NCBI GenBank assembly: GCA_951406725.2
Contig: OX597818.1
Location: 125,674,001-125,738,000 of the forward strand
Length of the DNA: 64,000 nucleotides
Reading direction: 5' to 3'
Origin: Octopus vulgaris
Taxonomy: Eukaryota
Below are positions 1-27,469 of this stretch, piece after piece (positions within the stretch are counted from its first letter, which is position 1; each line of letters begins with the position of its first letter). Made by a program: the position numbers and the translations under genes. Under the pieces are notes generated by a model, which worked only from the letters and a program-made list of their open reading frames with translations, was not told the DNA's origin and searched no databases.

Positions 1-222
<222 letters not shown>

Positions 223-223
<1 letters not shown>

Positions 224-1465
224 TCGTGGTGAAATAATGAAGGCAATTCAACCTGGCAATACTTGAGGCAGATGGAATCAAACACCACATCATAAAGGAA
301 AAGGCAAAAGGAGAGTACTTGCGGCAAATTAGAAAAATATTGTCTTCAAAGCTGAATGCTAGAAGCATTTCGGCAATAAACTCACGCACAGTCATAGTAG
401 TTCGCTATGGTGCTGGAATCCCGAAGTGGACAGAGGAGGAGCTAAAGGAGATGGATTGAAAGTCAAGAAAGCTCCTAACGATGCATGGAGCCCATCATCC
501 ACGTGCAGGCACTGATTGCCTATACATGAAAAGAGCAAATGGAGGAAGGGGACCGGTGAGTATGGAAGACTGCGTACGTATCGAACTCGAGAGCTTAATG
601 AGATGCCTAGCCCAAAGTAAGGAAACCTTGTTAGTGACAGATTAGAACGAGGGACTATTGAGAGCAGAGTGAAAAGGGAAAACAAAGGAAGAAGGGCAAA
701 AAGGATATGATGAAGAATTACGCAGGGGACTACACAATCAATTATATGTAGCTACTATAGAAGTTGCTGGAAAAAATAGGTAGGATTCGCTGATGAAAGG
801 AACTCTAAAAAAGAGACCGAGAGTACTATAGCGGTAGGTCAAAACCACGATCTGGTCACGAACTGGAGGGTCAAACCGCTGTGCTGTATCTGCAATAGAG
901 TGGATGAAACCATTGACCATATCACGATCGAATGCTCTAGACTTGCCCAAAACCACTACAAGTGGTGACGACACAATCAGGTAGCGAAAGTGAAAAGTGG
1001 GGGCTAGAGAGAGGCAAGACTTGATATGGACACAAACTGTACAGTGTAGTGGAACTGGAGACTAGCAAAATCTTCTGGAATTTCCCAATTCCAACAGATC
1101 AGGTGCTAGAGCAGAACAGACCGGACCTAGGGGTGGTGGACAAGATGTACCACATATTCTATATAGTTGAAGTTGCATGTCCCTTCGTTCCCCGAATAGT
1201 CCAGAAGGAAGGCGAAACGTTAGATAGATACAACCCTCTTAACCCGGCTGTGGAAAAGGAAGAAGGTGCAGATAATGCCAATTATTGTTGGATCCTTGGG
1301 AACAGTATCAGAAGGCATCAAGAGGAATATAAATGAAATTGGAATAGAGTGCCCAGTAGAACTGTTACAAAAGGTTTGCCTGCTTGGCACGGCCAGAATA
1401 ATCAGGAAAGTATTAGATACCTGGAAAGAACGAATAGCCTGGTCCCGTAGGCTGTAGGTAGCAAG
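223..1465 (+). mobile_element. Decayed, 5'-truncated non-LTR retrotransposon with restriction-like endonuclease (R4/Dong-like)
   Basis: Frameshifted remnants read RKILSSKLN, RYGAG, LTMHGAHHPRA, GGRG, a CCHC knuckle remnant near 880-980, then IFWNFPIPTDQVLEQNRPDLGVVDK..IVEVACPF and IMPIIVGSLG..LQKVCLLGTARIIRKVL. These match the RT C-terminus plus REL domain. The flanking (TAA)n fits the known Dong target. Confidence 0.85.
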
Positions 1466-4193
1466 CATGTATGTATGTATGTATGTATGTATGTATGTAT
1501 GTGCGTGTGTGTATGCGATGCTCCAGCATGACCGCAACTTCATGGCTAAAACAAGTAAAAGAGTACATATACTATATGTGTGTTTGGAAAGATTTTACTT
1601 TCTTTGTCACTTGCGTATTGATTTTTTTCAATGGTACTTAATTAGCTGATAAACATAATTAACTAACAATAAAAGGCTACAAATGCAACAGGAAACTCAA
1701 ATTTACTTACTAAGATACGAAGCAGCTATGAATGACTAAAAGCATAAAGGCCACTGCATGAAATCTGTAGCTTACAATCCAGACAAAATCGATCACAGTG
1801 ATGCAATTTTTTGAGATCTTTATGATTTTAATTAGCCAAACATAGTCAGAGTAATAAGTTGGGTATTAAAATATATTAAATAAAAAATATAACCTGAAGA
1901 GGAATTTACGTTCTCCATGTTTAGACTCTTGAAGAATGTTTCGATGCTTAGGAATAGAAATAGCTGTTTATTGATTAATGCCAGAAATTGCGTACATCTA
2001 ATAACTCACTTGATTTATCACATAGGAAGATGACATATAAGTCAGCTATAATATGTGTTACAATTGGCTGAGAATGCCGACACTTTACGGTTTCAATGCA
2101 TTATCTCTGCGCTGGCATTAAAACACATACTGCTTTTACTGTGTGGTGCATAACAGAAATTCCAGTAAAGTTTAAAGGAGAATAATTCTCAAAAACGAAG
2201 AAAGTACTGATAATTGTATATATGTAGAATTGGAATTACAAAGCGCGCACACACACACACACACTTGATTACACTTGGTTTTGTAATCAGGCAAGTAGGC
2301 TCTCGATCATGAGTTTGAAGTGTGACAGAGCACTCGGTCGGATCAAATTCACTTAACAGAATCAAAAAGTATGACCCCGAATCTTCATTTAACTATTTTG
2401 TGCTCGCTTTCAGTAAAGGTTCCAGGCAACTCAAAATAAATCATAGATTTAGGAATATTATGTACGGTAGAGAGAAGCCCACTGTCTTCCCATCGTCTCT
2501 CTCTCCCTTCCTCTCTCTTTCTCTTTCTCTTTCTCCTTCTCGTCACACGAAGTCGAGTAAGTGTAAGTGAAACAGAGGTATTTTCCTTACAGATCGACCT
2601 ACTACTGCTTGTTTAACTGAATTTTTGAAGGTATTCTGCTGTTAGGGACACTGGGAAGCTCGTTATTTATACGGGTCCTGAACCAAATCATTAGCCCTTT
2701 AAAGATACCTGTAATAATTCACTTATTTACATTATACATATAATTGTATCATATTAGCCTCTCACATTTTGTTACGTCTATGTAAGAGAAATAGCAGTGG
2801 TCATGCCTTTTTTGCTAGGCATTACTGAATGCAGACCGAATGCATGCAACAAAGTGAAAAGCCAACCAAGTGATATTCGTCGGTCGTTGGATTAAGTTTC
2901 CTCCTTAGAAAATACAGTTCATCCGACGGCTTCTACACAGTTTCTGTCTATGGAATTTCGAAAGGTTTGGATGCATCTGAGGCACAGGAGAAGTGTGATT
3001 AGAAAGCAAACTTACTAGACATACATACATATATACAGATATATAAACTTATGTACATATACACATGTGCATGTATGTATGAATGTGCGAATGTATGTTT
3101 ACAAGCCGAGAGATAAAATAAATGTTTAAGCCTTATATACAATGTATATCGTTTACCTAAAATACGAGTTTATAATCGAACATAAATTTATATGGGGCTT
3201 TGCCTGCGTTGTGAACTTAAGTAGAAGGGAGGCAGTAAATGTTTAATTGCCAACAACTGTAACTTAAAGCCATACAGTTTATGATATCAGTGTTGATTTA
3301 ATCTACTGCAATGTTTGACATGTACTTATTTTATCAGGAACAAAATCAAAGTAGATCCCAATCGGATTTGAACTTAAGAGAACTCAGAGACGAAACTTAT
3401 AGATTGCAAGATACTTTGAATACATACACATAGATGTAATAATTTGAAATGCAAGTTAATGAAAGAATCAGAGCTTATCATTGGAAATTAAATAACGAAA
3501 ACAATTTCAGGTATCAAGAGAAATATTTTTTTAAACCATTAGTATGTATGGATCAATACGGATTTTAACGACAGATGAAAAACTAACTAGGTATGTGACA
3601 AAACAAAAAATAAACAAAGATTATGTTCAGTCAAATTGCTCTGTTTATAGACTCATGATTTGTATAAATTTGAACATATTTTAAAAGAAGTCTGTATCAC
3701 GAAGGATAATTATAGAATTAAAACATTTAAAAATACTTTTAAGTGTTCCAGTCATGTGCTTTGCTGAAATTATGTTGGGATCAGTTGTGGAATAAGCCTT
3801 GAGTGTATACAACCAAACGATGAACAAACACGGACAAGGAGACAAGAAGACGAGCTTCAAGCTGTCTCGCCCTCGTCAGCGTCTGCTTAAGTGACTAGCA
3901 CCGAGAACAGGGTTGATGAGTTAAGTAAATGTTATCCATTAGCTAAGTAGAAAATGTTACTTAACCCACAGACTGTTAAGCTAATTTGTGCAGTGGTCCA
4001 GGCTTAGCAACTATAAACAATTCTCGTTAAGTCAGACACTGTATGAAAAGTAATGGATTCAATTTTGACATAAAAATATATTTCGGTATATGGATCATAT
4101 TTTTGAAAAGTGTTCATGCTATGTATGATATAAAGAGAATATGTAACAGAACACCTTATGTAATGCATGCATTTCTACAACCCCTGCTTACAG

Positions 4194-4307
4194 ATTTAAA
4201 CGACAGGTAGCTGATATGCGAGTGGCTGAGTATCGGGCACTGATGGCATTGTCCAGAAAAATTACCTGCACCCAGGTAGCGTGTGGGTTAGTTGATATTG
4301 ATAAGAG
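4194..4307 (+). CDS. Neuropeptide precursor, peptide exon A: (x)FKR-QVADMRVAEYRALMALSRKITCTQVACGLVDIDK(S/R)
   Basis: Acceptor cccctgcttacag, donor AG|gtatag. 114 nt, phase 2/2, open frame. Dibasic KR followed by Gln. Clearly paralogous to exon B (D..AEY.A...LS, C..VACG.VDI). Confidence 0.85.
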
Positions 4308-4554
4308 GTATAGTAAGCTCTAGTTCAACCCCCAAACACTATCCTTTTACCTAGTCAAGACCTAAACCAAAGCCCTTTCTCACTTACCCGCCTCAAATCC
4401 TTAAGTAAATGGTCAATGCATTACATTGTTAATATTTTTTTTCGTGTTTTGTGTTATACCAATAATTAATAACGTAGCAATGATAGATTCAATTTTTACA
4501 GTTCAAATTTTTGTACCATTTCATTCATAAATATTGCACACACACACACACACA

Positions 4555-4591
<37 letters not shown>

Positions 4592-5275
4592 ACACACACA
4601 GACACACAGACACACACACACACACACACAGAAACACACACACGCTTATATATGTATATTATACATAGTACTCTACCTTCATACTGTGTGGGCTGAGGTT
4701 CACACTTCATAAGCCGCTAATATGGCTTGGTTAAACTTCTGATTTAGGTAGCTAAATAATTTATCACTCTTGTGTCGTAGTTAACACGGCTATACACATT
4801 ACAGCAGACTCGGAGTTCAATTTCCATAGATCATTTAATGCATATAAATAGTATATGCATATACACAGATATTAATGTACAAGTATATATATATGGCCAT
4901 TTTACGCACACATACACGCATATGCACGTGTATATAGTAATATTTAAGTAAATATTTCGACCATTTGTTAAAGGAATATCGTGCTACCCTACCAACCACC
5001 TCCATTTCCAGTAAAACTCCATTGCCTCTTCTATAGTTATCTTTATCCAATGATACCCGTTCCTCACATTTCACATAGTTGGTCACATTATAATTGTTAT
5101 GTTATTACAAAAAGCAGTATTGATTTTATTTTGTTGTCATTACCTTTTACGTTGATATGTGCAATTTTCCTTCGCATTCCTTCTCGTATTTATAACGTTT
5201 GTTTCTTATCGACCTGTCAAATTGTTCTGTCATTATTGTTGATGTCCATTTGTGTGTTGTTTTACCTATTTACAG

Positions 5276-5395
5276 ATCGAAGCGCCAGACAGGCGATGTT
5301 AAAATAGCTGAATACCAAGCATGGTTAGGACTTAGTGGCACTGTACCACCGGGTTGTGTCGAGGTTGCCTGTGGGGTAGTCGATATAAACGCCAG
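5276..5395 (+). CDS. Neuropeptide precursor, peptide exon B: (x)SKR-QTGDVKIAEYQAWLGLSGTVPPGCVEVACGVVDINA(S)
   Basis: Acceptor ttttacctatttacag, donor AG|gtacag. 120 nt, phase 2/2. Lies inside ORF 5199-5447. Paralogous to exon A. Confidence 0.87.
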
Positions 5396-5586
5396 GTACA
5401 GTAAAATACAAAAAAACAGTAAAAGCCAAAATCCTGCTAAGCCATGAAAAATCCATTTTCAGGAATAGAAAAGACGCAAAGTTTTATGTTCTATCCTCCA
5501 GTAACATTGCTCTCCCTTCTCAATTTGTTGATTGATAAATGTTGTTTGCGTGTTTGTACATATGTATATAGGCATGTATTTATGTA

Positions 5587-5649
<63 letters not shown>

Positions 5650-5867
5650 TATATATGTATGTAGGTATGTATGAAGGTATGTATTACAATCCACCCAACT
5701 GAAAATGGAGGCCCCTGCTACAAACCAGGGTTCCATTTAAGAGTAATATAGGTCTTCCCGTATAAGCACTGTGGTGGCATCATTCGGGAGCTAACACAAT
5801 GAGAAAGCGCACTGTGATCAACGGTGTACAACAACATTTGATAGTCTGGTCTATCTATACTGTGCTG

Positions 5868-5914
<47 letters not shown>

Positions 5915-5922
<8 letters not shown>

Positions 5923-6146
5923 AATATTAGGGAATAAATCCAAATTTACAGGGAAAAAATCAGATTTAGGATTAAATCCAATTTTATAGTAAAATATTAT
6001 ATAATATTATTAGAGACAAAACCACCATTTTGCAAAACATACAAGGAAAGACTTAATCAATACATAAAATTTTAATGAAAAGTAAAAAAAACCGCCACTA
6101 CAATTGTTTCATTGTTTGTTTTGCAAAATAGTGGTTTTGTCTCTAA

Positions 6147-6147
<1 letters not shown>
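5915..6147. mobile_element. Fold-back fragment (probably Penelope-like terminus) between (TA)n tracts
   Basis: Internal inverted repeat attagagacaaaaccaccattttgcaaaac / gttttgcaaaatagtggttttgtctctaat. The same family occurs in reverse at 59545-60185. Confidence 0.5.
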
Positions 6148-6194
<47 letters not shown>

Positions 6195-6196
<2 letters not shown>

Positions 6197-6395
6197 CCTC
6201 GTGTGTACCGTTGGCGATTTTTTTTTCCTCTGTCTTCCCTTCTCTGGATCTTTCCTTCTCCTATGTTTCCGAGGAAGAGCTCCGCTCGAAACGTTAAACC
6301 CCCCTTCTTCCCTTCATTCCTGAGCGTCCAATAATACCTATATTTGTTCCACATCCTCGCGTTGTTGTGTTTTTTTTGTGTTTTCTTGTTTGGAT

Positions 6396-6400
<5 letters not shown>
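6195..6400 (+). mobile_element. Penelope-like pseudo-LTR fragment carrying a hammerhead motif, inserted in (TA)n
   Basis: (TA)n on both sides; contains the hammerhead motif at 6265-6299. Confidence 0.6.
6265..6299 (+). ncRNA. Minimal type I hammerhead ribozyme-like motif (U4C variant)
   Basis: GUUU-CCGAGGA-A-GAGC(UCC)GCUC-GAAA-CG-UU-AAAC. Stem I GUUU/AAAC, stem II GAGC/GCUC, palindromic ACGU in place of stem III. Confidence 0.6.
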
Positions 6401-6467
<67 letters not shown>

Positions 6468-6869
6468 CGTATGTATGTATGTATGTATATGTATATGTTG
6501 TTGTAATGAGAATTTTATGAACATTCAAGAGAGCGTGGAATAACACTCTTTTTGGAATCTCGGAGTACATATAAAGCTATAGATAATATTCGGTTGAAAA
6601 ACACTTTTGAAAATGATTCTATGTATTAGTCTGTGTATGACACCATGTGTATATGTGTATGTGTCCATAAAAGTTTTTAAATGCTTGCCGGTGTAAAACC
6701 TGGCATTGTGATATGTGTTGCGTCCCTCATTGTCATTCCATAACACGTGGAAAAGTGGTGCTCGGTATAAGGATTACTTGACTAAAAGAGTACTGCGACA
6801 GAGGAACGAAAATATTTGGTGGTTGTGGACACTTGTGGTCTAGTGTAGCCTCGTGTGACCTAGTGTGTG

Positions 6870-6902
<33 letters not shown>

Positions 6903-7027
6903 CATGCACTCACGTACACACACGCATGCACTCACACACACATACACACACACGCATATATATACAAATATACATAGTGCATCTATATATATGAATATAT
7001 ATATATATTTATATAAATATATATATA

Positions 7028-7486
<459 letters not shown>

Positions 7487-8377
7487 TAGATATATATATA
7501 TATATATATGAATATGGATATAGTTTACTGTTCTGTTACAAATCAACAAACAGATATTCCATCCGGTGTGAAATATAAATATCTTTTAATATACATGGTA
7601 TTAAAATAAGAACTATTTATAGTTTCTTGACATGAAGACACGTTGTTAGATAGGTTTTTATAACGTACCTTGTGTCTCCAAACTACCCTTTATGCTCTGA
7701 GTCCGTGGCTTGTTATATTTTTCAAATAGAACAAAACCATGAGCTCAGAGCCTGAAAACTCCTATTAGCTCATATTGTAGTACAGTGTACATCAAATGAT
7801 ATGTGTGTATGTGTTTATATATGTTTGTATGTGTGTGTGTGCGTGTATTTGTATGTATGCTTGAGTGTGTGTATGCATATCTGTACGTAGCTATATGTTG
7901 CTATATCTAAAGTTTGTACTGCCTTCTATTGTTCAGCTGCTATTTATATTTATCATTATCGTTTTTGTTGTAATCAATATATCATTTTCTTTACTCTTAT
8001 TTCAATCACTTATATTTTCAATTTTGCTATTACTTACAATCCGTCTTATCTTTGTTCTTCTTTCTGCTTGTTATTGTTGCTGTTTAAATGTTCTGTTGCT
8101 GTTGGGGGTCCCTCTTTTTTTTTCGTTTCCGTTTCAGTTCTTTTCTCGTTTGTTGTTCTCAATATTGTCGTGTTCTTTGTGTCTTATTTTCATATATTTT
8201 TTCTACTTATATCGACATTCCCTTTCCTATGTCACGTTTCTTCAACGTAACAGAAAACGTCATTGAATAGAAGGGTGGGCAGAGTATCTGTGTGTGTGTG
8301 TGCATTTGAAAATATTATCAGCTCATAATTACCAATCTATCTACCTATACACATATACATATATATACATACATATG

Positions 8378-8491
<114 letters not shown>

Positions 8492-8610
8492 TATAGTTCT
8501 ATAAATATATATATATATATATGTCTATAGTTTTATATATATATATAAAATTTTCGGTATGTGGTTAAGCAACTTGTTGCAAATAACCCTTATTGTTATA
8601 ATTATATATA

Positions 8611-8649
<39 letters not shown>

Positions 8650-8912
8650 TGTCATATGCACATACTTATAGACAGACAGGGGCACGGACACACACATAAA
8701 CACACAAACACACAGTTGTGTAGCTTAGTTTTGCATCTGATTTATCATTAACTGAGTATTATTACTGTAATTATAGATAATGTTGCAGTTACTGTAGGTA
8801 TTAAAAACATATTTACACCCTTATATTTATTTTTATTATATTTCCCTTGTACACGCATGATCTTGTCCTTTGTAATCTACTTAAATAGGGTAGTATATAT
8901 ATATATATATAT

Positions 8913-9790
8913 ATTCATAAATGAGGGTGAAAAATTAGATATTAATTTAATAATACCATCAGTTTAACACCAAGTGGCCTAGCACATAAAAAAACCAGGG
9001 AGACAGTACAAATTTATACGTAAATATAAGAGAGTTAACGTTAAGTGGTTAACTCTAGTGCTAGAAATAGCTCCTTATTCTGGTATAGCCACCGAAATTG
9101 TTTCCACAAAAGAAATAACATTACCTTCAACGTAAGGAAAGCGAAATACAACGAAAAGATAGATTAATGCTGAACAATTGTTTCTTTATCAACATAATAT
9201 GCAATTATACTCACATATTTGTCTATAAGTCATCGGCAGCATTTGTCCTCGATTCAATTTATCAGACCCTCACGGGCGATAAATACCCGTGCGGTCTGAT
9301 CGATTGCATACATAGTTGTGGTTTAGCTTCCCCGCCAAAAAGCATGCTAAGACTTAGTGGAAACTGATACTGCATATAATATTTGCTGCAGCATATTAAA
9401 TTTATAAATTCATAAATGAGGGTGAAAAATTAGAAATTAATTTAATAATACCATCAGTTTAACACCAAGTGGCCTAGCACATACAAAACCAGGGAGACAG
9501 TACAAATTTATACGTAAATATAAGAGAGTTAACGTTAAGTGGTTAACTCTAGTGCTAGAAATAGCTCCTTATTCTGGTATAGCCACCGAAGTTGTTTCCA
9601 CAAAAGAAATAACATTTTATGTGCTAGGCCACTTGGTGTTAAACTGATGGTATTATTAAATTAATTTCTAATTTTTCACCCTCATTTATGAATTTATAAA
9701 TTTAATATGCTGCAGCAAATATTATATGCAGTATCAGTTTCCACTAAGTCTTAGCATGCTTTTTGGCGGGAAAGCTAAACCACAACTATG
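8913..9790. mobile_element. Partial-tandem plus inverted element (Penelope-like architecture)
   Basis: 8913-9122 is repeated directly at about 9408-9616, and 9617-9790 is the reverse complement of about 9310-9487. (TA)n on the left, (CATA)n on the right. Confidence 0.6.
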
Positions 9791-10857
9791 TCTGTCTACA
9801 TACATACGTATGTAGACATACATACATACATACGTATGTAGACATACATACATACATATATACATACATACATGTATGTATTATGTATAATGAAAGTTAA
9901 AACAAAGTTTGTTTATAAAATATTTAATTACATTATCTTATGCGTAGGTGATTTACCATGAAAAATATCAGCCATTAAAAAGTAGACCTTATTAAGTCGT
10001 TTGCTTTGTGCTGTTAAATCTCCTGAAGTTGAGTTAATCTCATTAGAGTCCTTCTGTATTCTCACTCTGCACTTCCGACACTGTTATGGTATGGGCTATC
10101 ACAATCACAACTACAACGATATATTGAATGTGTGTGTGGATGTGTGGATGTGTGTGTGAGTGTGTATGTATATACATATACATATGCTTACCCATTTACA
10201 TGCATGGACTTGAAGTGTATGTTTGGGTCATTTTTGTTTATTTGTCTGTGTGGACAGGGAGCGCTTTACATGCTTATAGTGATGTATATAATACGAACTG
10301 GTTCCTGTTTACTATATTGCTGCTTCTAGCCACTCCGAAATGACATTTCCCAAATGCTTTCTGTTTCTTCTCTTTGTTTAAATCTCATCTAATTAACTCG
10401 TATATTCAATTTCTGTAACCTAATCATATTCCTATCATTGTATTGTTTTCTACATCACACAGCAGAATATAGATGTTGCGTCGAACAAACAAACGAATGA
10501 ACGAACTACTGCAATAAGATCCACACTGAGATACCACTAATATACTGTACTTAAATATGAGCCAGATATTATATTGTTTTATTGCCCTACTTCTCTATAT
10601 TTTCTTCTGTTAGGTGAAAGAAGAATCATTAACATGAAAACCAAATTCGATTATAAAAATTGTGGTAAAATGATGACACCAAAACCATTGTTTTTGAAAA
10701 TATTCATTCTTCTGTATTGTTGTATAATATGCCTGTCAAAATATAATGATTTGATTTATTGCAATTGTTTATAACATGTTAATATCATACTTTCAATTAT
10801 TTCAGCATAAATTTATATGGTATATTGGTTTGTGTGAGGGGATAGTATTTGTGCATA

Positions 10858-10939
<82 letters not shown>

Positions 10940-10946
10940 TGAGTGA

Positions 10947-10977
<31 letters not shown>

Positions 10978-10983
<6 letters not shown>

Positions 10984-11825
10984 TGAGTAAATTGTCGCCA
11001 CTATATAGTTTTAAGTTCGAGCATTCGCATAGTTCGTTTTTAATTTTATCGACTACACAGTATAGTAGGATCAGTTGGGCACCGTCTGTGGGAAAAACAG
11101 CACTATGACGCAATTCACTCTCCCTGAAATTTGGAAACGACATGCTGTACTGTTTGACATTCGTGCCAGAAGCTCCAATAGGAACATTTCAGAGTGTTTG
11201 TGTGTCAATCTGAGGACATGTACTGAGAGCGATAAAAATCAAACATCTAGTCAACATCATGGTGTTTGGAGTGATCGCTAGTGACGGCGAGCTTACGCCT
11301 CCATTCATCATCCCACGGGGCCTCAGACTCAACACGAAAGGCCTACATTAAGTGCCTGGAGGAGCTAGTGCTGCCCTGGGTGAAGCGGGTGACATCTAGG
11401 AGACCATATGTCTGGCAACACGATACTACACCATACCATATAGGTAGGACAATTTCTGCGACCCCATCACCCCAAACATCTGGCCACATAACTTCCGAGA
11501 CTACAACCGTCTTAATTATTACGTGTGGGGTGCATTTGACCGAGAGTCCAACAAAACTCCTTGTAACACCAAAGATGAACTAAAGGGAAGGATCATGGCA
11601 GCATTCACCGACTTAAAAAAGGTGATCGTCCAGGAGAGTTGCAGGAGATTCCGAAGTTGTCTGGGGGCCATGGTTGAAGCTAATGGCGATTTTGTTAAAT
11701 AATCTATTCTTTAGTATGTCAAGAAAGTCTATGTAATTTTGGTCAATATATCTATTAAAATGAGATGTCAGTGTTACTTTCATTTTTTCGTAATTTAGAC
11801 GACAATTTATTCACTGCACACTGTA
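10978..11825 (+). mobile_element. Decayed Tc1/mariner-superfamily transposon (maT/DD37D-like)
   Basis: Remnants YIKCLEELVLPWVKRVTSRRPYVWQHDTTPYH, a degenerate WP..S.D.N.L.YYVW box, and NKTPCNTKDELKGRIMAAF. Terminal inverted similarity taaattgtcg / cgacaattta; TA flanks. Confidence 0.8.
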
Positions 11826-12062
11826 TATATATGTGTGTGTGTTTGTGTGGGTATGTATATATTTATATGCGTGTTCCTGTGTGTGAGCGTGTATGGATGT
11901 AAATGTGTGCATATGTGTGTGTGTGTATACATATATAATATGTAATAATACAAATTACATATGTATTGTTATATAGATTTAATATTAAATATATTGTATA
12001 TATGTATGTATATACACATGCGTGTGTATCTGTGATTGCGTGTATGTGTGTGCGTGTGCGTT

Positions 12063-12131
<69 letters not shown>

Positions 12132-12210
12132 GTGAGTCTGTTTCTACGAGGTTCGTCAGTGTGTATTTCTTTGGAGTCTTTCTTAAATGAAATTTCTGAT
12201 TTTACTTCAG

Positions 12211-12309
12211 CGGTAAACGGACATCCTCCGACCAGAGGATAGCCGAATTAAGAGCTCTTAAGGCCATGAGCAAAGTGGCTGGTCATGGCCAATATGACTT
12301 TGCTGAAAT
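12211..12309 (+). CDS. Neuropeptide precursor, peptide exon C: (x)GKR-TSSDQRIAELRALKAMSKVAGHGQYDFAE(I), iPTH/PXXXamide-like
   Basis: Acceptor ttctgattttacttcag, donor AT|gtaggt. 99 nt, phase 2/2. The SDQRIAEL..L and GHG..D...I-amide motifs resemble the arthropod iPTH consensus as recalled. Confidence 0.85.
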
Positions 12310-12359
12310 GTAGGTATTCGAAATTATCTCTGTCATCAGCGCTACACTCATAGTCGTAC

Positions 12360-13248
12360 TGTCCGTCAAGAAATCACACAGTGTTCGTCTGTTGTCACAC
12401 TGTGCCGTGCTGTGTGTTATACGTCACGGTATGACTGTTTAATTCGTTAGGGTGTGTTGTTTTTTACTATACGTTTGTTACAGTTATATTCTTCGTCAAA
12501 CACCGTGGATCATTACGTCACACCAAGATTGTTCTTTTGTACGTTATGTTCTATCATTTTTCATACGTATTAACGTGCTGTTCCTGATTCTACGTCACCT
12601 CATCTCGTATATTTTACGTCATACTGTATTGTTATTACGTATATTTTTCATCAAACGCTGTTTGCTACATTATGCCGATGGTAATTCTCTGCGTTACGTT
12701 CATTTGTTCTTTCTTCGTCACACTGCCGATCACTGTTCTATTGCAAATCAAATTATTTCTATAACGTCCCGCCGTGCTGTACATTATGTTTCTTCCACGT
12801 TCCGTCATGTTCATCATTGCACCTTCGTCACGATATGATGATCACCTATTTTCCGTTGCATTGATATTGGATCAATTCTTTTCTCTCACGTCACGTTTGA
12901 TGTCCCCGTCTGTATTCTACGTTACAATGTACACTGATCTATGTTGCGTCTTATCCTCACTCTATTACATTGATCTTTTGCACGATTTCACTTATGTTAC
13001 TAAGTTACACTGTCTTATTCATCCTTCGTCATATCATACCTTTCATTTTTCTCTACACTTTAGAATACTATATCCTACTTCATGTTGTCTATGTAGATAT
13101 ATTTCTACGACGTTATGTTAATGTGTTTATTCTAAGTACTGTCTCGCTGTCACAATTTCGTTTCGCCGTGTGCCGTTTCCAAGTATTTCACAGTCCTTTT
13201 CTATGTTACGTCAAAAAATTGTATCATAACATCATGTACACACACACA

Positions 13249-13318
<70 letters not shown>

Positions 13319-14100
13319 CATTTGTATATATGATGCAGCTTCACTGCGTCACACCTAACTGTTCACTATGCCACAACGTGGATCTTCTTTGTGTGATGTA
13401 AACTTGTTTTGTTCGGAGTATGAACTGACTGTTAATTAGTTCCATATATTTTTGATTTTCTGTTATTTTCCGGATTGTATTCAGTGCGTCACTTGTGACT
13501 TTTCTTTAAGTATCTTATTTATTCCACGTCGTCTAGTGATGTTTTTCATTCGTCAAGTCTCATATTTTATTTTTTTATCATGTCAATTTATATTACGTCA
13601 TGTCCAAATGTTCCTTTCATGGTATGTAATTCTCTTTAATTCTTTACTCTATGCATTTTGAAAATTTGATATTTCATTTCTGTTCTAAATAATCTTATTC
13701 ATTCTACGACAAGCCGTACTGTTTCTTTACATGCTCCTCCCCTTTTTTTTTCAATATCTTTTATTGTTTCACTGCGTCAAAGTTTGATTACATCGTGTTT
13801 ACCTCACATTTGTTCACCAAGACAAAGGCATGTTTCTTCACATGTGACACATGGATTTATCCTTTTTTTGTTACTTTTAGAGCACCCTGTAAACGTACAC
13901 CCTATCAGCATAGCATGGCTATGTATTCTATATCATACCGTGATGCTATGTACATCTTGTCAAAACGGATTTAGCTTATCTCTAAATTACGCTATATTCA
14001 CACGTTCTAAAGAGTGCCTTATGTGCTACATTCGCCACTCTTCCAATATTTCACCTTGCAGATGTTTACAATTAACGCACCCAACTCTAACGTCACAGTG
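12360..14100 (+). repeat. Highly decayed CGTCA-containing minisatellite-like tract
   Basis: Recurrent same-strand (T/A)CGTCA(C/T) and ACGTTA words in a pyrimidine-rich context, interrupted by (TA)n near 13250-13315. Confidence 0.55.
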
Positions 14101-14340
14101 CTTCAATCTATGTGTACATACATGAATGCATACATAGATAGATACATACATACATACATATATACGTACATACATATATATGTATAAATTAATACACGCG
14201 TGCATACGTAATTCATACAGACATACTTAGATGCATACATATGTAAAGACATATATATATACATGCATAAATTCATACCTACAAACGCACATGCATATGT
14301 ACAAACATGCGTACGTACTTACAGCTTCAACGTGTATATA

Positions 14341-15460
14341 CAGTTGCGGCCAAAATGTTCAGAACGGCATTGTTTTTGTCAGAAAAGTAGATATAATTTT
14401 TAATAAAACTTGTGTTATTTTCTATAATTTTCACAGACAATAAATACGATATTAATTGTTATTGTCTGAGATTTTGGTGTAATTTGAGAGGATAATACAA
14501 AAGTTATGGATGATTTAGTGATTTACTGCCAAACCCATGGCGGCCAAGATGATCAGAACGGTTGCTTTTACTTCATGTTTTACTATATTTAACCGGTGAA
14601 CTCTAATGCTTTGAATTTGTTTACCCGACGGTTTATTTACTAAACATTAGTAAGAGTATCTGCAGTGTACTTTGTTAATATAATGCCACTTACTCCGTTA
14701 CCAATTCGTCAGCAGATTATTAAGCTTCGAAAGAAGGATAATTTAAGTATTGGGTCTATTGCAAAGATTGTTAACAAGTGAAAAAGTGTTGTTCACGGTA
14801 TTCTTAAGGTCTACGATGATTGTGGTTCGTGTGAAGCAAGAAAGTCTACAGGTAGGCCATGAAAAACGACCAACAGAGAAGATCGTGCTATGGTAAAGTT
14901 GGTTAAAAAGGACAGATTTAAAACTGCTGCTGCTGTTTCTCGGGAAATGTGCATTGTACTGAAGAAAACTTTATTTCGAAAAACTGTGTGTTGTCGTTTA
15001 GTTGAACATGACCTACAAGCAAGAGCACCTGCAGTGAAGTCACTAATCAGCTCCAAGAATAAAAAATGTCGTCTTACCTTTGCAACCGAACATATGTTGT
15101 GGTTTCAAGAAAAATGGCAAACGGTGCATTTCCGGGATGAATCTAAATTTGTTATTTGGGTCAGATGGGAAAAGGTACGTTTGTCAAAAAGTAGGTGAAA
15201 AATTGTCGCCTAAATGCCTTAAGACTAGTGTTAAATTCGGTGGAGGAAGTGTCATGGTTTGGGGGATGATATCTGGAGATGGTGTGGGCCCTTTGGTGCG
15301 ATTACATGGAAAGGTAAATGCAGGAGTTTATAAACAACTTGTAAAAGATCATGTCTTGCCTGTGCTGAGAAATTCAACTAAGCGATCACCCATATTCATG
15401 CAGGACAATGCCCCATGTCACAAGGCTAAGGTGGTCATGAACTTTCTCAAGGCTGAAAAG
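14341..15460 (+). mobile_element. Tc1-like transposon, 3'-truncated, with pseudogenised transposase
   Basis: TA|CAGTTGCGGCCAAAATG terminus, echoed internally near 14540. HTH region from 14683 with in-frame stops, then DESKF, SVKFGGGSVMVWGMISGDGVGPL and FMQDNAPCHKAK. Confidence 0.9.
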
Positions 15461-15723
15461 ATTATTGTTAATATAGCCACTGAAAAGTGGCTATATTTTT
15501 AAATCGAATTAATTTTAAATCGAATTTATTTTAATAGCATCGATTTTATCATTATCGATTTAAAGATATAGTCCCCAAATGCGCGGAGTCAGTTTAATGT
15601 TTCTTTAATTTATTGATTTTTAAAAATATATATTATAGCATATTTAATTTTTTCTATATATGGATAATGTCTTTCACAATTGAATTGCTTTATAGAAGAT
15701 ATTTCTCTTAATAATATATGTGC

Positions 15724-15770
<47 letters not shown>

Positions 15771-15944
15771 CACAAGAATACACAAACATTCGCAAACGTG
15801 TTCTCAAATCTAACAATTCCCATGCAAACATACACTCACAGAAGCACGAATGCATATTACAAAATACGTCAGATGACACACACACACACTACGGAGATGT
15901 AACTGCATTGCAAGTAACTTGATCTGAGATCGTGTGCTGAAGCA

Positions 15945-16170
15945 AAAACAATTGCAACGAGGAAGATGCTTGTCGGCCATTTAAGGCCAAAAAAAAAACG
16001 TCAGTTTCACTTCAACATTTAAATTAAATTTGTGTCAAAATATTTTCATCGCTTTGAAACCGCGACCTGTTCATTGACAACATTTTGTGTATTTAAATGT
16101 TGAAGTGAAACTAACGGGTTTTGTGTGTTCTTAAATGGCTTACAAACATCTCCACGATGCAATTGTTTAT
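15945..16170 (-). mobile_element. Fold-back Penelope-like fragment with a hammerhead-like motif in the loop
   Basis: 15945-16025 and 16090-16168 are imperfect inverted arms. The minus strand of 16033-16079 reads UGUCA-AUGAACAG-GUCGC..GCGAU-GAAA-AUAU-UU-UGACA. Confidence 0.55.
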
Positions 16171-16222
16171 ATAACTGATATATTTATTCTATACACATTA
16201 ACACAAATTCGGTAAACATATA

Positions 16223-16315
<93 letters not shown>

Positions 16316-16338
16316 ATAGATACACACATATGTGCCTG

Positions 16339-16386
<48 letters not shown>

Positions 16387-17179
16387 CAAATTAGTTACCA
16401 CTCTATCTCAAGAAGCTAAAAGTCAAATGAGCTAAGCAGGACATAATAGACCTAGCTGCTAACCCATGGCAACCCACATCAGTTAGAAGCCTCTATTCCT
16501 GCCATTTTCTAACTAGTTCTTTATATTTCAAGCTCTTCCTTTCATGTAACCGGTCCCATGCTTTCGATGAACAGAAAATCTAAGTGGAGTTTTCTTATGG
16601 ATCATTTATACTCGATTTCAATCACTAATATTCAGCTGCTATATAAAGCAGTTATAAATTAGGCTATAGCTTTGGTGGATTGCTTAGCTTATATAATTGT
16701 GCTTTTGACGAGTCGTCTTTAACAGATATATTATGCATAAAACAGTGTGAGTCAGAAACACTGAAATAAATATAAATATTAGAAGACCTGAATTTAAGAG
16801 AAATATTTAGCATGTAGACACATTTTTCTCTACCTGTGATGCGCAGAAAACAAAAGAGAAGTGTCATGCCTGACCGTTTCACGGTTTGTTAAGCGCTCAT
16901 ACATACATACATGCATTCATACATACATATATAAATACATACATACATGCATACATACATACACACATAATTACAAAAATACATACATACAACAGTCTTT
17001 GAATTGAAGTTCGCACTTATATATAACACATACAGAGACATGTGCGCATAAAACACACATACACGTACATGATGACTTTGTGCACTTGGTCGATCTCGTG
17101 ATTAATATTGAATTATTTTCTATATCCTTATCTCTTTCTATACAAAAGCTCTTGGCAGTATCGGTACAATCGCCACAGG

Positions 17180-17180
17180 A

Positions 17181-17231
<51 letters not shown>

Positions 17232-17330
17232 TAGTAGTAGTAGTAGTTGTAGTAGTAGTAGCTGTGGTGGAGGTGCCGTCGGTGGTGGTGGTGGTGGTAG
17301 TGTAGGTGGTGGTATTGGTGGTAGTTGTGG
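17180..17330. repeat. (TAG)n/(GGT)n microsatellite
   Basis: Direct inspection. Confidence 0.95.
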
Positions 17331-19933
17331 CTGAGTAAATTATGTCACTTAATCCGATTGGTTTGTTGGGAAACCCTTTAAAGTTTTCTATCTTAACTAA
17401 ATATACATTGCAAGACAGAGTAACTAATATCCGGATAGTAGAGAAGATGTATGAAATCAGCATTGAGATAAACGGCTTGTCAATTTTCCCGGAAACGATT
17501 GAAATACACGTGATCGAAAACAGTTACTCGAGAGAAGAAAAAACACATTGATCGAAGTACAACAATTAATCGAATTATAAATAAATATTCGAAGTACAGA
17601 AAATTGCTTAAAGGAAAATAGATTTTATTTTTTATTGCTATACAATATATAATCTCAAGTTATGAATGATTGCGAAGATATGAGTGTATGTGTGTGTACC
17701 TGTCGTGTTTATATTTAACAGTCTTGAACACTAGTTTCTAAATTGTTGAACATAAGCATAACAAGCTCAGACACATATAAGAAATTATTTTATATTCTAT
17801 TGTAATTTTTATAGTAAATTAGATATGAGATATTAATATAATTATATATACATATACACACACACAGACACACACACACACATATATATATATATATGCA
17901 TATAATGTTAATATAACATATATAGATTATATACTAATATATCATATTATATATCATATTATTTTATAGTCGTATTTTATATTTTGCGAGTTAGCAGGAC
18001 CCTGTTTCTATAATTGGTATTACAGCCGATCATTTTCTATCAATTGCTTTCTTAGTGAGACAGTCAATGTTAGCTCAATCACCCATAAGAGTGTTATAGT
18101 TCCCTCAGCTATACTCGTGTAGATTTAGTTTAACTCAATATTGAAAGGTAGCCGAAATCTCTTCAATTTAATAGAATTTCTCGCTATTCTCTGTGGTAAC
18201 TCATTGAACAACAATGAATACTTGCCAGCAATTTTCATGAAATGTTGATCATGATTTTCAATATGGCACGAAACAAGAAATATATTGTTTCAATAATGTA
18301 ATTTTTTTCATGCACATCTGACCTGACATATTGCGATTTCAACAAGTTATATATAAAATACAAAATATAATATATGCTACTTAAATCTCCACCATGAGCT
18401 GTAATTTTTGAACGAGCTCTGAAAATAAATTGCGAAGCACTGTCTCAAAAAACCTTACAATAAGGAAATAAAATCAGAAATAGTAGCCAAATCCCCCTTA
18501 AATGAAAGCGTTCTAACATATTAGATAATACTGTCCTAGACATATTGTATCTAGAAAATTTCATATGCTGGAGCACGTCTTATCATCGGATAAGATCTAT
18601 TCGATCAGGGTTGACATTAAGTTCAATAGCTGCAGCAGTTGTCATTCACGTAACCAGTCGTCATTCACGTGCGAGTAAGACTTGGTAACGTAATTCATGC
18701 GTATGCTCGTCGATTTCGGTGCCTAGGTTGTCATGAGCAGTCAGGGAAGTCCTTTAAGGAATCCTCTCATTCTTAACCTGGTGGAATAACCGGGATGTGA
18801 CAGCTGGAGTAAAAGAGAGGATTGCACTAGCACGCAACAGGTACTCGTAATATGTTGTCTGATTCAGGAATTCAAGTCAGAAATTATGATCATAAGTTAA
18901 TACCTCATCCAAAAAATGAAAATGAACTTAAATTATAGCAAATTCTACAGATAGTCGAAAATTGGCAAGTTGCGCTGGCAATGTAGGTTCTATTTCATGT
19001 AATACTTTTACATTTCGTTTAAAACTAAACAGTTATCAAATCGGCCTAATAAAAGCCTTTGAAAAACGGAAATAGAGCATCCGTCGATCGCTGCTACTGC
19101 TTTGATATGTTGATGTAAGCAGACTTACTATGAATGATGCGAAGGACAAGTAAATCTATTAGTGCTCCATTTTTACACAGTACAATGATATTCTATTGCA
19201 TCAGGAGAATTGAGGGAGAATTGGTCTAATGTCGTACCTAGTGTCTTGATATTAAAATACCAATAATATATTGAGAGTAGCCACCATCCTCAATCCACAG
19301 TTGAAGGGAATATATAACACTTGTCCAACAGTTTTGCCTGGCTTTAGAATTCAGCATAAACCTAGATGAGTAGCCTAGATAGATTGCTACCATTTGTCCA
19401 AGATGTTATCTCGAGTCTCCTGGGGAAAGGGGCAACTTAATATCCCTTTTACAGGTTGGCTTCTATAACTTAAGGCAAAGGCCTTTCACAAATAACAAGA
19501 AAGTACAACATTCGTTGGCGATCCAGTGAACTATAACGATTATAAAATTGAACAATATCGAGTGTTTTTTTTTATAGATAATAATCACTTATTAATGTCC
19601 ATAATTCATGATACTGTTTCGATCTCGTTTGTAAGCTATAAACATAATCTTAGTTCCGTAGTTATAAATTGGTAATAAATTTGTAATCTTAGCTTAAACA
19701 ATTAATTATATTTAAGAAAAGAGATGCTGCACTGTTATATTTTTGAGGTAAGTACACACACACACACACTCACACACAAACTCACAAACACACATCTTTC
19801 CAACAGCGTTTGATTTGAAAAGTTAAAATTAATTACTGGCGAGATCTTTCCACTTAATTTGATAAAATTTTAGTAACCAGACATTTTTTCCCTACACTGG
19901 TTTCTTTACACTTAGTTTTACTTACGATTTTAG

Positions 19934-20039
19934 CGGCAAGAAAAAACGTAGTGACATATCAAGTGACGACATCAGACGTTCAACTCTGGCTCAAAGACTG
20001 ATCCGATTTGCAGCAGAGAGACTTGCAAAGACTGAGTAA
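19934..20039 (+). CDS. Neuropeptide precursor, last coding exon: (x)GKKKRSDISSDDIRRSTLAQRLIRFAAERLAKTE*
   Basis: Acceptor ttttacttacgattttag. The first base C completes AG|C (Ser) for exons A/B or AT|C (Ile) for exon C, followed by the Gly-KKKR amidation/convertase signal. Stop TAA at 20037-20039. Donor-like G|gtgagg after 20051. Confidence 0.85.
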
Positions 20040-20186
20040 TCTAAAGAAATGGTGAGGTATTTGATTTCTTTCTTTCTCTGTCTGTCTCTCTCTCTCTTTC
20101 TCTCACTCTCGCTCTCTGAAATTTCTTTATTTATTTCACTGTTTTAAAATGAAAGCTGTCCAGTTTTTATATTTACATATTTACAG

Positions 20187-20420
20187 TCACTTAGATTTAG
20201 AAACATTACAAAACTCATCCATGTTAGAACTTCGAGTTTTAGTCAATACATCGGACTTGGTGCAGCTGATTAACTGAATAGAATAGCTCCTTAGTATGTT
20301 AGATTAGTAGACTATAATTTGTAGATTAGTGAATTTGGATAAAGATAGATAAAAATTTAGGATCGATGGCAAGTTGAAGAATCGAAGCAGGTTGCAATAA
20401 ATCCTATGCAGGTTCTAAAT
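20187..20420 (+). other. Putative 3' UTR exon of the neuropeptide gene (3' end uncertain)
   Basis: Acceptor tttttatatttacatatttacag ends at 20186, after a donor at about 20052. AATAAA at 20396-20401; further AATAAA sites lie downstream, e.g. near 21401. Confidence 0.4.
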
Positions 20421-21834
20421 CATTAAAATACAGCGGTAACGATGATTATGGTAGCGACGACAACGACGACGACGACAATGATTAATATGTTGATTAAGAT
20501 GATGATGATGATGATGATGATGTAAATCACGTGAACTAAGGGAAGGAAACAGTATAAGACTACTGCTTTGGTAATCTAAGAAAAGTTTAAAAGTAAGGTT
20601 AACAACAACGGAAGCAGACTTTCACTGTTTCTCTTACGTTGTGTATTATTGCTGGAATGATGTTAGTATATTACAAAGAGGAAGCATCTAAGTAGTGGTT
20701 TTATCAACTACAGATGTCAACCAAATCTTCTTCGAACCACACTCCATCGTTTTATATAAGTGAGACTACATGAAATAATGTAGTCCTAGATAATCGTAGA
20801 AAAAGAGGGTCATAGTTGAAGTGTCTTTGATCATATGTCTGCTCAACAACAATTGATTTGAAGTTACACAAAATAGTCCATCTTAGAAAAGTGCCTGCAG
20901 CGTTTCTGGAAGTTTACAGAACTTACGATAATGAACAGGATGATAGAAAGAAATACGTCACACATTGCCCTGTGTAAAAACAGTAAGCTATGCAACTAAA
21001 GAGGATAGGAACACAGCGAGTTGGCTTCGATTCTAGGTTGTAGCCATTTCACTACATCTTTATCGATTAGGTCTTTGATAATGAACTCTCCATAAGCTCA
21101 ATGCCTTTCTCTTTAATGAAGAATTGTTTGAATTGACAGTATTCCATTGCTAGTACCTCTTCGACTCCATGAAGATGAAATACAAAGAAGAATCTATGTA
21201 GACTTGGACTTAATGCGTTGAGGAATGAGGAATATGCGAGGGAAGTTTATGACTGACTTCTTTGATTTCCAGTGTACAGGGAGTTCGAGGAAAGTTGACA
21301 GTTCACATACAAAGAAAATAAACATCATCGATAAAAATAATAGTATTTTAAAAAGATAATTTAAAATATGTTTTATTGATTGTAATTAAAAAATAGTAAC
21401 AATAAAAGATGCAACAACTGAAGAACAAATTATACGTATTCTTTTAATGAGCATTGCTTTTGTTCGTTTATTCATTTCTATTTATACTTTTTTGGCGCTC
21501 GTGCATTTAGATATACAACCAGAAGTATGTGCAACTCTTTTTTTAAAAATTAAGTATATTCACAAAAGTAGAATGCAAAACTTCGTATGTCATAGTAGGT
21601 CACAAACAGGTGATATAGCTAACAATTGAACAGCTATATGTATGTAACATTAGGTATACACTTCACATTTGCATATCACTATTTTGTGCTTTTAGCTGAA
21701 TTACTTGACACATGTCCTTAGTGGGTATTGATGAATAAATTCATAGATATTGAAGACCAATGTGCTAATGGATTTACTAAATTTTATTGTTTACTAAGTA
21801 TGTAATCCAATAGATGCAGGTGAAACTTAACGAG

Positions 21835-23445
21835 CAAAAATATTAGAAAATTTCAAAAAATTTTTGCAAAAATTTTCAAAAATTTTGGGGGAAAATTTTC
21901 AAAAACTTTGGGGAAAAATTTTCAAAGATTTTTGGTGAAAATTTACAAAAATTTTTGTAAACTTTCACCAAAAGTTTTGGGGAAAATTTTCAAATAATTT
22001 TGAGGTAAATTGTCTAAAATTTTGGATAAAAATTTTCAAAAAATTTTTCAAAAACAGATTACCGGAGATTCCCGGAAATTGCCGGATATGCCGGAATTTA
22101 CCGGGAATTGCCGTAGATTGCCGGAAATCAACGGAAGTTGCCGGAGATTGGTGGAATAGCATTTTGGGAGATTTCCCAATAATGCAGGGAAAAGTTTTCA
22201 AAAATTTTTGGGGAAACATTTCAAAAATATTTCGGAAAATTTTGAACAAATTATGGGGAAAATTTAAAAAAATTTTTGGGGAATATTTTCAAAAATTTTC
22301 GGGGAAAACTTTGAAAAATTCTTTGGAAAAATTTTGGGGGAAAAAGTTGAAAAGTTTTTGGGAAAAATTTTCAAAACGTTTCGGGGAAAATTTTCAAAAA
22401 TTTTTAGCGGTAGTTGCCGAAGATTACCGGAGATATACTGATCTTGCCAGAGATAGGCGGAGATTGCCGGAGATAGCCGGAGATAACCAAAGATTGGCGG
22501 AATAGCATTTTTGGAGACTTCCCAATAATGAAGGGAAGAATTAAAAAAAATTTTGGGGGAAAATTCTGAAAAATTTTGTAAAATTTTTGGGGAAAATTTT
22601 GAAAAATAAAAAAAAATTTGGGGAAAAATTTTGAAAAATTTTTGCGAAAATTTTGAGGAAATTTTTAACAATTTTTGGAAAAAATTTGAAAAATTTCAGG
22701 GGAAAATTTTCAAAATTTTTCGAGGAATATTTGTTTCAGTTTTAGGGAAAATTTTAAAAAATTTTTGAGGAAAATTTTAGAAAAGTTTTTAGGGAAAATT
22801 TTCAAAAATTTTTGCGGTAATTGCCGAAGATTACCGGAGATATACTGAGCTTGCCAGAGATAGCCGGAGATTGCCGGAGATAGCCGGAGATAACCGGAGA
22901 TTGGCGGTATAGCATTTTTGGAGACTTCCCAATAATGAAGGAAAGAATTTTCAAAAATTTTGGGGGAAAATTCTGAAAAATTTTGTAAAATTTTTGCGGC
23001 AAATTTTGTAAAATTGTTGGGGAAAATTTTGAAAAATTTTTCGGAAAAATTAAAAAAAATATTTGGGAAAAATTTAGAAAAATTTTGGGGGCAAATTTTG
23101 AAAAAATTTTTGCGAAAAATTTTCAAAAATCTTTGAGGAAAATTCTCAAAAATTGTTGCGGAAAATTTTTTGGGAAAGGTATCAAAAATTTTTGAGGAAA
23201 TTTTTAACAATTTTTGGGAAAAATTTGAAAAATTTTGGGGGAAAATTTTCAAAAATTTTTGAGGAAAATTTGTTTCATTTTTAGGGAAAATTTTCAAAAA
23301 TTTTTGAGGAAAATTTACAAAAATTTTTGCGGTAAATTAAAAAAAAAGTTTTGTGGAAAATTACGGGAGATTGCCGGAAATTGCCGGAGATTGCCGGAGA
23401 TTGCCGGAGATTGCAGGAGATAGCTGGAGATTGGCGGAATATCAA
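21835..23445. repeat. Composite satellite: phased AAAATTTT tracts with four blocks of 10-bp (TTGCCGGAGA)n and a recurring ~36-bp module
   Basis: 10-mer blocks at about 22058-22150, 22410-22500, 22818-22905 and 23360-23435. The module atagcattttgggaga(c/t)ttcccaataatg occurs at about 22156, 22502 and 22909. Confidence 0.9.
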
Positions 23446-23985
23446 TGACTGATGATAGAGTATGGACGGATTTTTGAAGTACCCTACACACATATTTGAT
23501 TATGAAGATTTACAAACATATTTTCTCAGTGAAACTCAATATACCCACCATTATAGATAATACCAAATGTACATTTTCGGATTTTTCATAATTTCATGTG
23601 ATATAATTCTTTGGTATAGCAATTGCATGCGGCTGAAGAGAGCTTTAAACTATCTGTTATGTCGATTACACATTGATGTAAGAATAGGTTATTTTATAAA
23701 GCTTGAAACACGTGTTCCGTGACATCCTTTGTGTTTTGTTTTTCATTTCATTTGATGCATATATGTATATACTAACAGTATAACCCGGATTTTCCCGCGA
23801 TTAAGTTAGGATTATTAAGCTAATCAAGTTCTTTATTTCAAACCAAACTAAGTAATATCGATGTCAAATTTTGGCGAAATCTGTTGAAATTGGTTTCTAT
23901 ATATATATATATATGGGCAGCACACACATACACGCACGTACGTAATACACCCATAGCATACATGTTTTTTGTATGCATACATGTT

Positions 23986-24029
<44 letters not shown>

Positions 24030-24378
24030 TGTGTGTGCGTGTGTGTGTTGCCCGTATATCAACAAAACAATTTTTTCTTCGATGGAAAAAAAACAACAAA
24101 AGTCAACAAAAACTTACTCGTCGCTAGAAGGGGACTTAACTCCTGTTTGTAAACAATGGTGATTTCTCCGACTTGAAAATTGTTAAAAGTTTTGGTTGAA
24201 AATTTATTTTTACTACTATTCGCTGGTGCCTCTGGTAAAAAAAATAATAAGTTGACGAAAATACAGCTAGGTTCATGACGAATGTCCTCCTAAAATTGGA
24301 GCGACATGCATCCTAATTTGTGGACGTGCAAAACGTTCACACACACACACACACACATCCTGCCTTTTATATATACAT

Positions 24379-24437
<59 letters not shown>

Positions 24438-24486
24438 AACACACGTGCGCGTGCACACACATAGTAGTTATCTTTTACCATATACT

Positions 24487-26245: not shown

Positions 26246-26367
26246 CATACATACATACATACATACATACATACATACATACATACATACATACATACAT
26301 GCATACGTTCATTCATTCATTCATCCATTCATACATACATACATACATACATACATACATACATACA

Positions 26368-26401
<34 letters not shown>

Positions 26402-27436: not shown

Positions 27437-27469
<33 letters not shown>

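Follow-up and report, generated by a model that had tools for sequence, protein, structure and literature searches.

The window, by which we mean the whole stretch of 64,000 nucleotides of Octopus vulgaris DNA under study, carries on its forward strand most of a gene for neuropeptide-like precursors (Table 1). The gene consists of a signal-peptide exon (exon 1), which lies upstream of the window, three alternative peptide exons, A, B and C, and a shared terminal exon, D. Exons A and B are of the QSamide type: a profile of that type (31 rows, made of 30 sequences in a printed list and one further member) matched them with E-values of 4e-15 and 3e-17, respectively, and matched nothing else in this copy of the gene. 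Exon C gave no match to the same profile at E<=1, and is therefore not a QSamide, which would have a Gln start, a cysteine pair and a Ser-amide end. The 29 residues encoded by exon 1 are the same as in the paralogous copy of the gene (see below) and in O. bimaculoides, and are taken for a signal peptide by this identity; exon 1 begins directly after a splice acceptor, so that one more 5' exon has to exist. A database protein labelled Octopus vulgaris (P0001) contains exons A-C letter for letter; its first and last exons correspond to window positions 3544-3594 and 13882-13971, the signal exon and exon D are missed, and the model looks mis-annotated. A Pfam scan of four proteins (octopus precursors and the exon) found no family, and UniRef names two family members, P0011 and P0017, 'corticotropin-releasing factor domain-containing'. 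Elsewhere in the window, positions 240-1430 and 11060-11700 presumably are fragments of a non-LTR retrotransposon and of a Tc1/mariner-like transposon, respectively, and two long satellite-like arrays of A/T blocks, with periods of 10, 23, 32 and 37 nt, occupy positions 21846-23439 and 47944-50570.

Table 1. Features of the gene copy in the window and of the surrounding duplication (window positions, unless contig C5 is named; nt and aa are differences from the paralogue)
Feature	Position	Strand	Remarks
Exon 1, signal peptide	C5:125670568-125670656		3.4 kb upstream of window; 3 nt, 0 aa (one more nt in split codon)
Exon A, alternative, cysteine-containing QSamide-type peptide	4194..4307	+	4 nt, 4 aa; counterpart of O. 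bimaculoides transcript 1
Exon B, alternative, second QSamide-type peptide	5276..5395	+	7 nt, 7 aa; counterpart of O. bimaculoides transcript 2
Exon C, alternative (phase 2/2)	12211..12309	+	Gly-Lys-Arg, then iPTH-type peptide up to residue 29 plus two bases of Ile30; 15 nt, 9 aa
Three short perfect inverted repeats	12248..12304		12248-12261; 12262-12269/12283-12290; 12269-12276/12297-12304; hold 9/15 differences
Lys14 codon	12260..12262	+	Leu in paralogue; three-base difference; otherwise hydrophobic column
Exon D, shared terminal	19934..20051	+	Completes last residue; Gly-KKKR (amidation, cleavage), C-terminal peptide, stop 20037-20039, donor after 20051; 1 nt, 1 aa
Junction of 2.4-kb absence	21359..21369		Paralogue side L011:1-1814 and L010:9414-10000
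Inverted segmental duplication, ~470 kb	G000:C5:125.638-126.107 Mb vs 126.345-126.948 Mb		Whole window (1..64000) inside one arm

Exon C is read in frame +2 between a ttcag acceptor and an AT/gtaggt donor. Its translation starts with G-K-R and continues for 29 residues that include SDQR, GHG and D-F-A-E; the Lys-Arg pair is encoded at 12215-12220 and the mature part begins at 12221 with SDQR, which gives the dibasic KR followed by Ser-Asp that is characteristic of iPTH. Both SDQR and GHG stand where a preliminary description of this DNA had placed them. That description also gave the exon the ending D-F-A-E-I-amide, of which D-F-A-E is indeed in exon C, while the completion of Ile30 and the amide signal lie outside it and are supplied by exon D. 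The acceptor of exon D is the only other one in the window that is followed by Gly-basic-basic; it provides the third base of Ile and an in-frame G-KKKR, that is, the C-terminal Gly and basic residues typical of iPTH, so that exons C and D together yield a predicted amidated peptide of 30 residues, the length stated earlier. The C-D join is observed, exactly at AT/C, in RNA-like contigs of the paralogue only, and would apply to the window copy by analogy. A donor 4 nt downstream of that of exon C, leading to Met-stop, was rejected, as the RNA-like contigs of the paralogue, in which the donor is the same, use the first one. A phase-2 intron splits the codon of the last residue, a trait looked for in iPTH/molluscan PXXXamide genes (intron phases were compared among molluscan genes): the read-through model P0072 from Pomacea ends in Met and the spliced model P0058 has Ile-GKKKR, which is what an identical intron would give.

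Exon C opens with a codon (window position 12213) that specifies Gly, and Val in the paralogue; if A or B were spliced in before C, this Gly would lead to amidation of the A or B peptide. Contigs from two other sequencing runs, X3 and X4, have T at 12213, and the Gly of the window may be a private allele. Obligatory co-splicing of A or B with C, suggested by the G-K-R start, was set aside: the paralogue starts with V-K-R, and both the exon 1-C and A-D joins and the T in X3 and X4 contradict it. The RNAs of both copies of exon C are predicted to fold stably (z of -3.6 for window 12201-12320 and -2.8 for L002:1481-1600), in each case with the acceptor region base-paired to the donor region, which may bear on mutually exclusive splicing.

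The preliminary description assigned exon C to the iPTH/PXXXamide type from its motifs and proposed alignment and profile comparison as a check, and this assignment is borne out. A profile of 20 distinct non-octopod peptides (lophotrochozoan peptides cut from fetched proteins) matches exon C with E 2e-10 among 46,338 ORF pieces of a 1.456-Mb region, and a profile of three arthropod peptides, one of them from Table S1 of Xie et al. and Tribolium not among the proteins used, matches it with E 3e-5. The exon is 21/31 identical (68%) to a cuttlefish PXXXamide-type precursor. Its setting agrees as well: in the accessible part of Table S1 of Xie et al. 2020 (PMC7224569), three O. bimaculoides transcripts begin with exon 1, continue with A, B or C and end with D, which is the exon layout found here. 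The exon C peptide thus belongs, as judged from its sequence, to the iPTH family. It is not a literal PXXXamide, because the proline site, four residues from the amidated end, is occupied by Phe.

The absence of this proline was correctly noticed in the preliminary description, which treated it as a peculiarity; as a novelty it does not stand. Xie et al. 2020 (PMC7224569), in the portion available, term the proline only 'mildly conserved', and by our own reading of the same incompletely available Table S1 it is absent in 9/54 cysteine-free entries, O. bimaculoides included (a count that leaves out cysteine types, an oyster transcript that is a duplicate, gene 2 of Sepia and one entry with no sequence). 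Neither the published O. bimaculoides orthologue nor the peptides of Argonauta and O. sinensis have it, and it is missing in 3/62 fetched non-octopod peptides. Loss of the proline is uncommon outside octopods, common to all octopods examined, and already in print. The supposed shortness of the peptide is no oddity either, as the cuttlefish peptide is also of 30 residues.

Searches of the assembly (G000) with exons C, D and B found two loci for each. The second copy of the gene is 1.17 Mb away on the minus strand, and the two copies occupy the arms of an inverted segmental duplication, separated by a 235-kb non-palindromic spacer; the 1.456 Mb spanning both arms contain no N. The possibility of a giant palindrome, interrupted by a gap at its centre, was dismissed on account of that spacer and the lack of N. 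Near the gene, substitutions separate the arms at 2.8% of 70,141 non-exonic sites; for 200,470 sites of the arms the figure is 3.2%, and the arms also differ by many kb-scale indels. According to the accessible part of 10.1101/2023.05.16.540928, heterozygosity of Octopus vulgaris is 1.22%, and its splits from O. sinensis and O. bimaculoides date to 2.5 and 34 million years, respectively. Runs X3 and X4, which bear two organism labels, each contain both types of exon C as separate contigs, the window type appearing there with 2-3 other letters. Two loci are also found in O. sinensis, one of which (P0006) has the Lys at the end of exon 1 and the Thr in exon D of the window copy, but exon A of the paralogue type. 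We infer that the duplication is real, a few million years old, and has undergone some conversion between the arms. A 3.1-kb tract of intron 1 (window -2070 to 1028; L003 and the window start) is 99.8% identical between the arms, versus about 95% elsewhere, and is likely a recent gene conversion. DNA just outside arm 1 (G000:C5:125575412-125629621) recurs in direct orientation within the spacer (126152912-126218546) at 90-97% identity, so the duplication is complex. A scan of the region for long ORFs gave, by eye, mostly transposon-like or repeat frames and no second co-duplicated gene that could serve as a control.

The far copy is the ordinary one and almost the same as that of O. bimaculoides, from which its mature C peptide differs by one residue; the window copy differs by eight, including Lys14. 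In contigs of runs X2 and X8, which are only guessed to be RNA, the far copy is spliced with exon 1-C, C-D and A-D joins. All six contigs from the presumed RNA runs X1, X2 and X8 are of the paralogue type and none is of the window type, and runs X6 and X7 yielded no contig; contigs drop rare variants, so this count is silent on expression of the window copy. No RNA entry was found for positions 12150-12400.

The divergence of exon C from its twin is five times that of the flanking DNA: 15/99 nucleotides differ, against a mean of about 3 per window of this size, and at least 15 differences occur in 227/121,286 sliding 99-nt windows (the exon itself included) and in 5/1,670 tiled ones. The fragment resembling a Tc1/mariner-like transposon is another hot spot of divergence, with 14 differences in 99 nt. 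Altogether 20 residues differ between the copies in the three peptide exons, for which pN is 0.095 and pS 0.033 (pS inside exon C, 0.115), and pN for exons 1 and D together is 0.007. Non-synonymous differences exceed the background strongly in exon C (p 7.5e-7) and also in exons A and B (binomial p 0.009), the latter two having 11 non-synonymous and 0 synonymous differences; measured against synonymous sites the excess is weak, pN>pS by Fisher test having p 0.044 for A+B and p 0.088, not significant, for A+B+C. All five coding exons of the window copy are open, with no stops and with intact splice signals. When random sets of 14 substitutions were placed on the paralogue exon C, only 5/2000 kept the profile score and 593/2000 created a stop; the score was kept in 39/2000 sets for exon B and 109/2000 for exon A, every difference being treated in this simulation as arising in the window copy. 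The changes in the window copy are not random decay, and the family core is spared. The exception is residue 14, whose column has I, L, M or V in 48/48 non-octopod peptides and where Lys is the sole radical change; the profile scores the window copy at 41.9 bits, down from 51.8. Lys14, rather than proline loss, is the real oddity of this peptide.

The differences in exon C are also unusually placed. A 14-nt palindrome at 12248-12261 recurred in 87/20,000 shuffles, and three perfect stems of 7-8 bp take up 9/15 differences, an enrichment reached in 0/1500 trials of each of two null models at 7 bp, in 6 and 3 at 6 bp, and in 8 and 2 at 8 bp; the statistic is post hoc, as it was chosen after the palindrome had been noticed. 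The arm window overlapping exon C ranks 1/162 among those with at least 8 differences, and in the background 70/1456 differences are in stems. Exons A and B have no inverted-repeat enrichment of their differences. The paralogue exon C has its own palindrome, of 16 nt, which holds 3 differences. Two of the three stems share bases, and cannot therefore form one structure. In yeast genes, according to the part of PMC8604942 at hand (compare PMC5453318), template switching at inverted-repeat arms of this length produces non-synonymous clusters that are often misread as positive selection. The divergence of exon C likely arose by template switching at short inverted repeats and was filtered by selection.

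What the window copy may do can be outlined by reference to the family. Its exon C is the iPTH/PXXXamide-type cassette of one of two octopus iPTH/QSamide gene copies. In the transcripts of this copy, exon 1 is presumably joined to a single one of the three peptide exons and this in turn to D, as the exon 1-C, A-D and C-D joins of the paralogue suggest. Exons 1, C and D together encode a predicted precursor of 97 residues, which, to judge by its relatives, would be cleaved at the KR and KKKR sites, with amidation at Gly. In the available portions of the respective reports, Tribolium and Ixodes iPTH activate PTHR1/2 with EC50 of 50-400 nM (Xie et al., PMC7224569; tick preprint 10.64898/2026.06.22.733765), and the precursors of iPTH, PXXXamide and QSGamide count as orthologues of one another, the receptor pairing in lophotrochozoans being assumed rather than proven (PMC8557429); Cluster B is the largest, still orphan, molluscan group of secretin-class receptors (PMC7200681, part available). 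By analogy with the beetle and tick peptides, the window peptide may act on PTHR-like secretin-class GPCRs of Cluster B, its potency or selectivity having changed. Our main reading, at a probability of about 0.55, is that the window copy is a functional diverged paralogue in which template switching and selection have produced an amidated peptide with altered potency or selectivity towards PTHR-like receptors; the hormone variant is probably young, and its preference among receptors probably altered. Rather unlikely is the bolder proposition that this duplicate of a few million years is expressed as a new ligand set, its iPTH exon rewritten by a handful of template-switch events, among the results a lysine in the hydrophobic face turned to the receptor, and kept by selection. 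If it is true, the two peptides would divide among themselves the Cluster B receptors of molluscs, which are orphan and expanded; or else the new peptide would be a biased agonist or antagonist of its twin.

The two copies could be the two haplotypes of one locus, falsely placed side by side in the assembly. Long neighbouring inverted arms are a known form of false duplication, and the contig depths of the exon C types cannot give copy number; this reading is nevertheless hardly credible, given the gapless sequence between the arms with its non-palindromic spacer, the arm divergence in excess of the species heterozygosity, and the recurrence of both exon C types in two further runs and of two loci in O. 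sinensis. At Lys18, Ala20 and Phe27 the window peptide agrees with Argonauta (P0005 versus window 12272-12301) and not with its own paralogue, and Phe25 of the X3/X4 form is likewise common to Argonauta, the paralogue being equal to or resembling O. bimaculoides at these places. The 3' half of exon C might accordingly be an old allele that predates the duplication and was fixed beside the other allele when the region duplicated, and the 3.1-kb tract does suggest conversion between the arms. We consider such an origin very improbable, since purely synonymous differences are few (a single one in exon C, and in the remaining exons 2 among roughly 100 synonymous sites), exon B of the window copy is the odd one at 6/7 sites relative to Argonauta, and convergence is easy, with Phe or Tyr before Asp in 30/62 family peptides.

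Stepwise positive selection on all three peptides after the duplication could have given a new ligand set, the inverted repeats being a coincidence or a result of selection on a pre-mRNA structure that governs exon choice. Exons A and B, with their purely non-synonymous differences and no enrichment of these in inverted repeats, speak for it, as do the stable folds of both exon C copies and the fact that exon C exceeds the background even when its differences are counted as 10 events (Poisson p 0.0016); yet the stem enrichment is specific to exon C, and the counts are small and come from a comparison of two copies; we find this unlikely. A larger share of doubt, though still a minor one, goes to a silent or decaying window copy, which diverged under constraint or by mutation clusters alone and then lost regulatory parts. 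The window copy is without 2.4 kb that contain the last 3'-UTR exon of the paralogue, joined to exon D in an RNA-like contig of the latter, although AATAAA sites, at 20396 and 21317, follow its stop. About 34 kb upstream of exon 1 of the paralogue (G000:C5:126871354-126905325; L014-L017) have no collinear match at the window copy; much of this segment has no match elsewhere in the region, and it may hold a 5'-UTR exon or a promoter. Both gaps could be losses in the window copy or gains in the paralogue. These absences, the Lys14 in a hydrophobic column, and the ability of template switching to yield non-synonymous clusters with no adaptation (PMC8604942, in its accessible part) would all fit a silent copy. 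Against it are the five open coding exons with intact splice sites, changes that, in each of the three peptide exons, touch the core less than random ones would, the same type of exon C in X3 and X4, and the low pN of exons 1 and D; we therefore prefer the functional diverged paralogue.

The family identity of the peptide and the loss of its proline were known already from the 2020 supplementary table, and what is new here is the fast-diverged second copy of the octopus iPTH/QSamide gene. The literature that we searched, including the available part of PMC6425005, has no mention of such a duplicate; an earlier mention is possible, as subscription literature was mostly outside the search. Two natural 30-mers that differ at 8 residues, with two pairs of QSamide variants, make a panel for deorphanising Cluster B receptors, and the same panel would help to ask which residues matter. 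If the mutational reading holds, the exon would provide a clear example, in an animal, of template switching that altered a hormone, and an ordinary dN/dS test would take such a case for positive selection.

The PXXXamide of Sepia officinalis was reportedly described by Zatylny-Gaudin et al. in 2016. As given in Table S1 of Xie et al., and in the near-identical P0068, it has the same length and the same flanking cleavage sites as the octopus peptide, but still has the proline (N-P-E-E-I) and, at position 14, a hydrophobic residue. The iPTH gene of O. bimaculoides (XP_014776777.1, the same as P0002) is alike in having a signal exon, three alternative peptide exons and a shared terminal exon, and its C peptide likewise has 30 residues and no proline, with an end of its own, D-V-D-A-I; Table S1, as far as it was available, lists one transcript set for this species, whereas O. 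vulgaris has two gene copies. Tribolium and Ixodes iPTH resemble the octopus peptide in the SD(QR) start, the G-x-G ... D end and the amide signal, and differ in being longer. In the Crassostrea gigas QSamide3/PXXXamide gene, as described in the accessible part of PMC8398477, splicing gives QSamide or PXXXamide peptides, singly or paired, so that here too one gene alternates between the two types; the oyster gene, however, has a single QSamide exon beside two for PXXXamide, each of the latter with proline, and its ligand diversity comes from exon duplication, that of the octopus from a segmental duplicate of the whole gene. As for the mutational process, the yeast cases of template switching (PMC8604942, available in part) similarly involve clusters of several bases that change amino acids and sit on perfect arms of 7-8 bp, but the octopus exon C, for which the process is a proposal, has three stems within 57 bp, and it is a hormone exon belonging to a duplicated gene of an animal.
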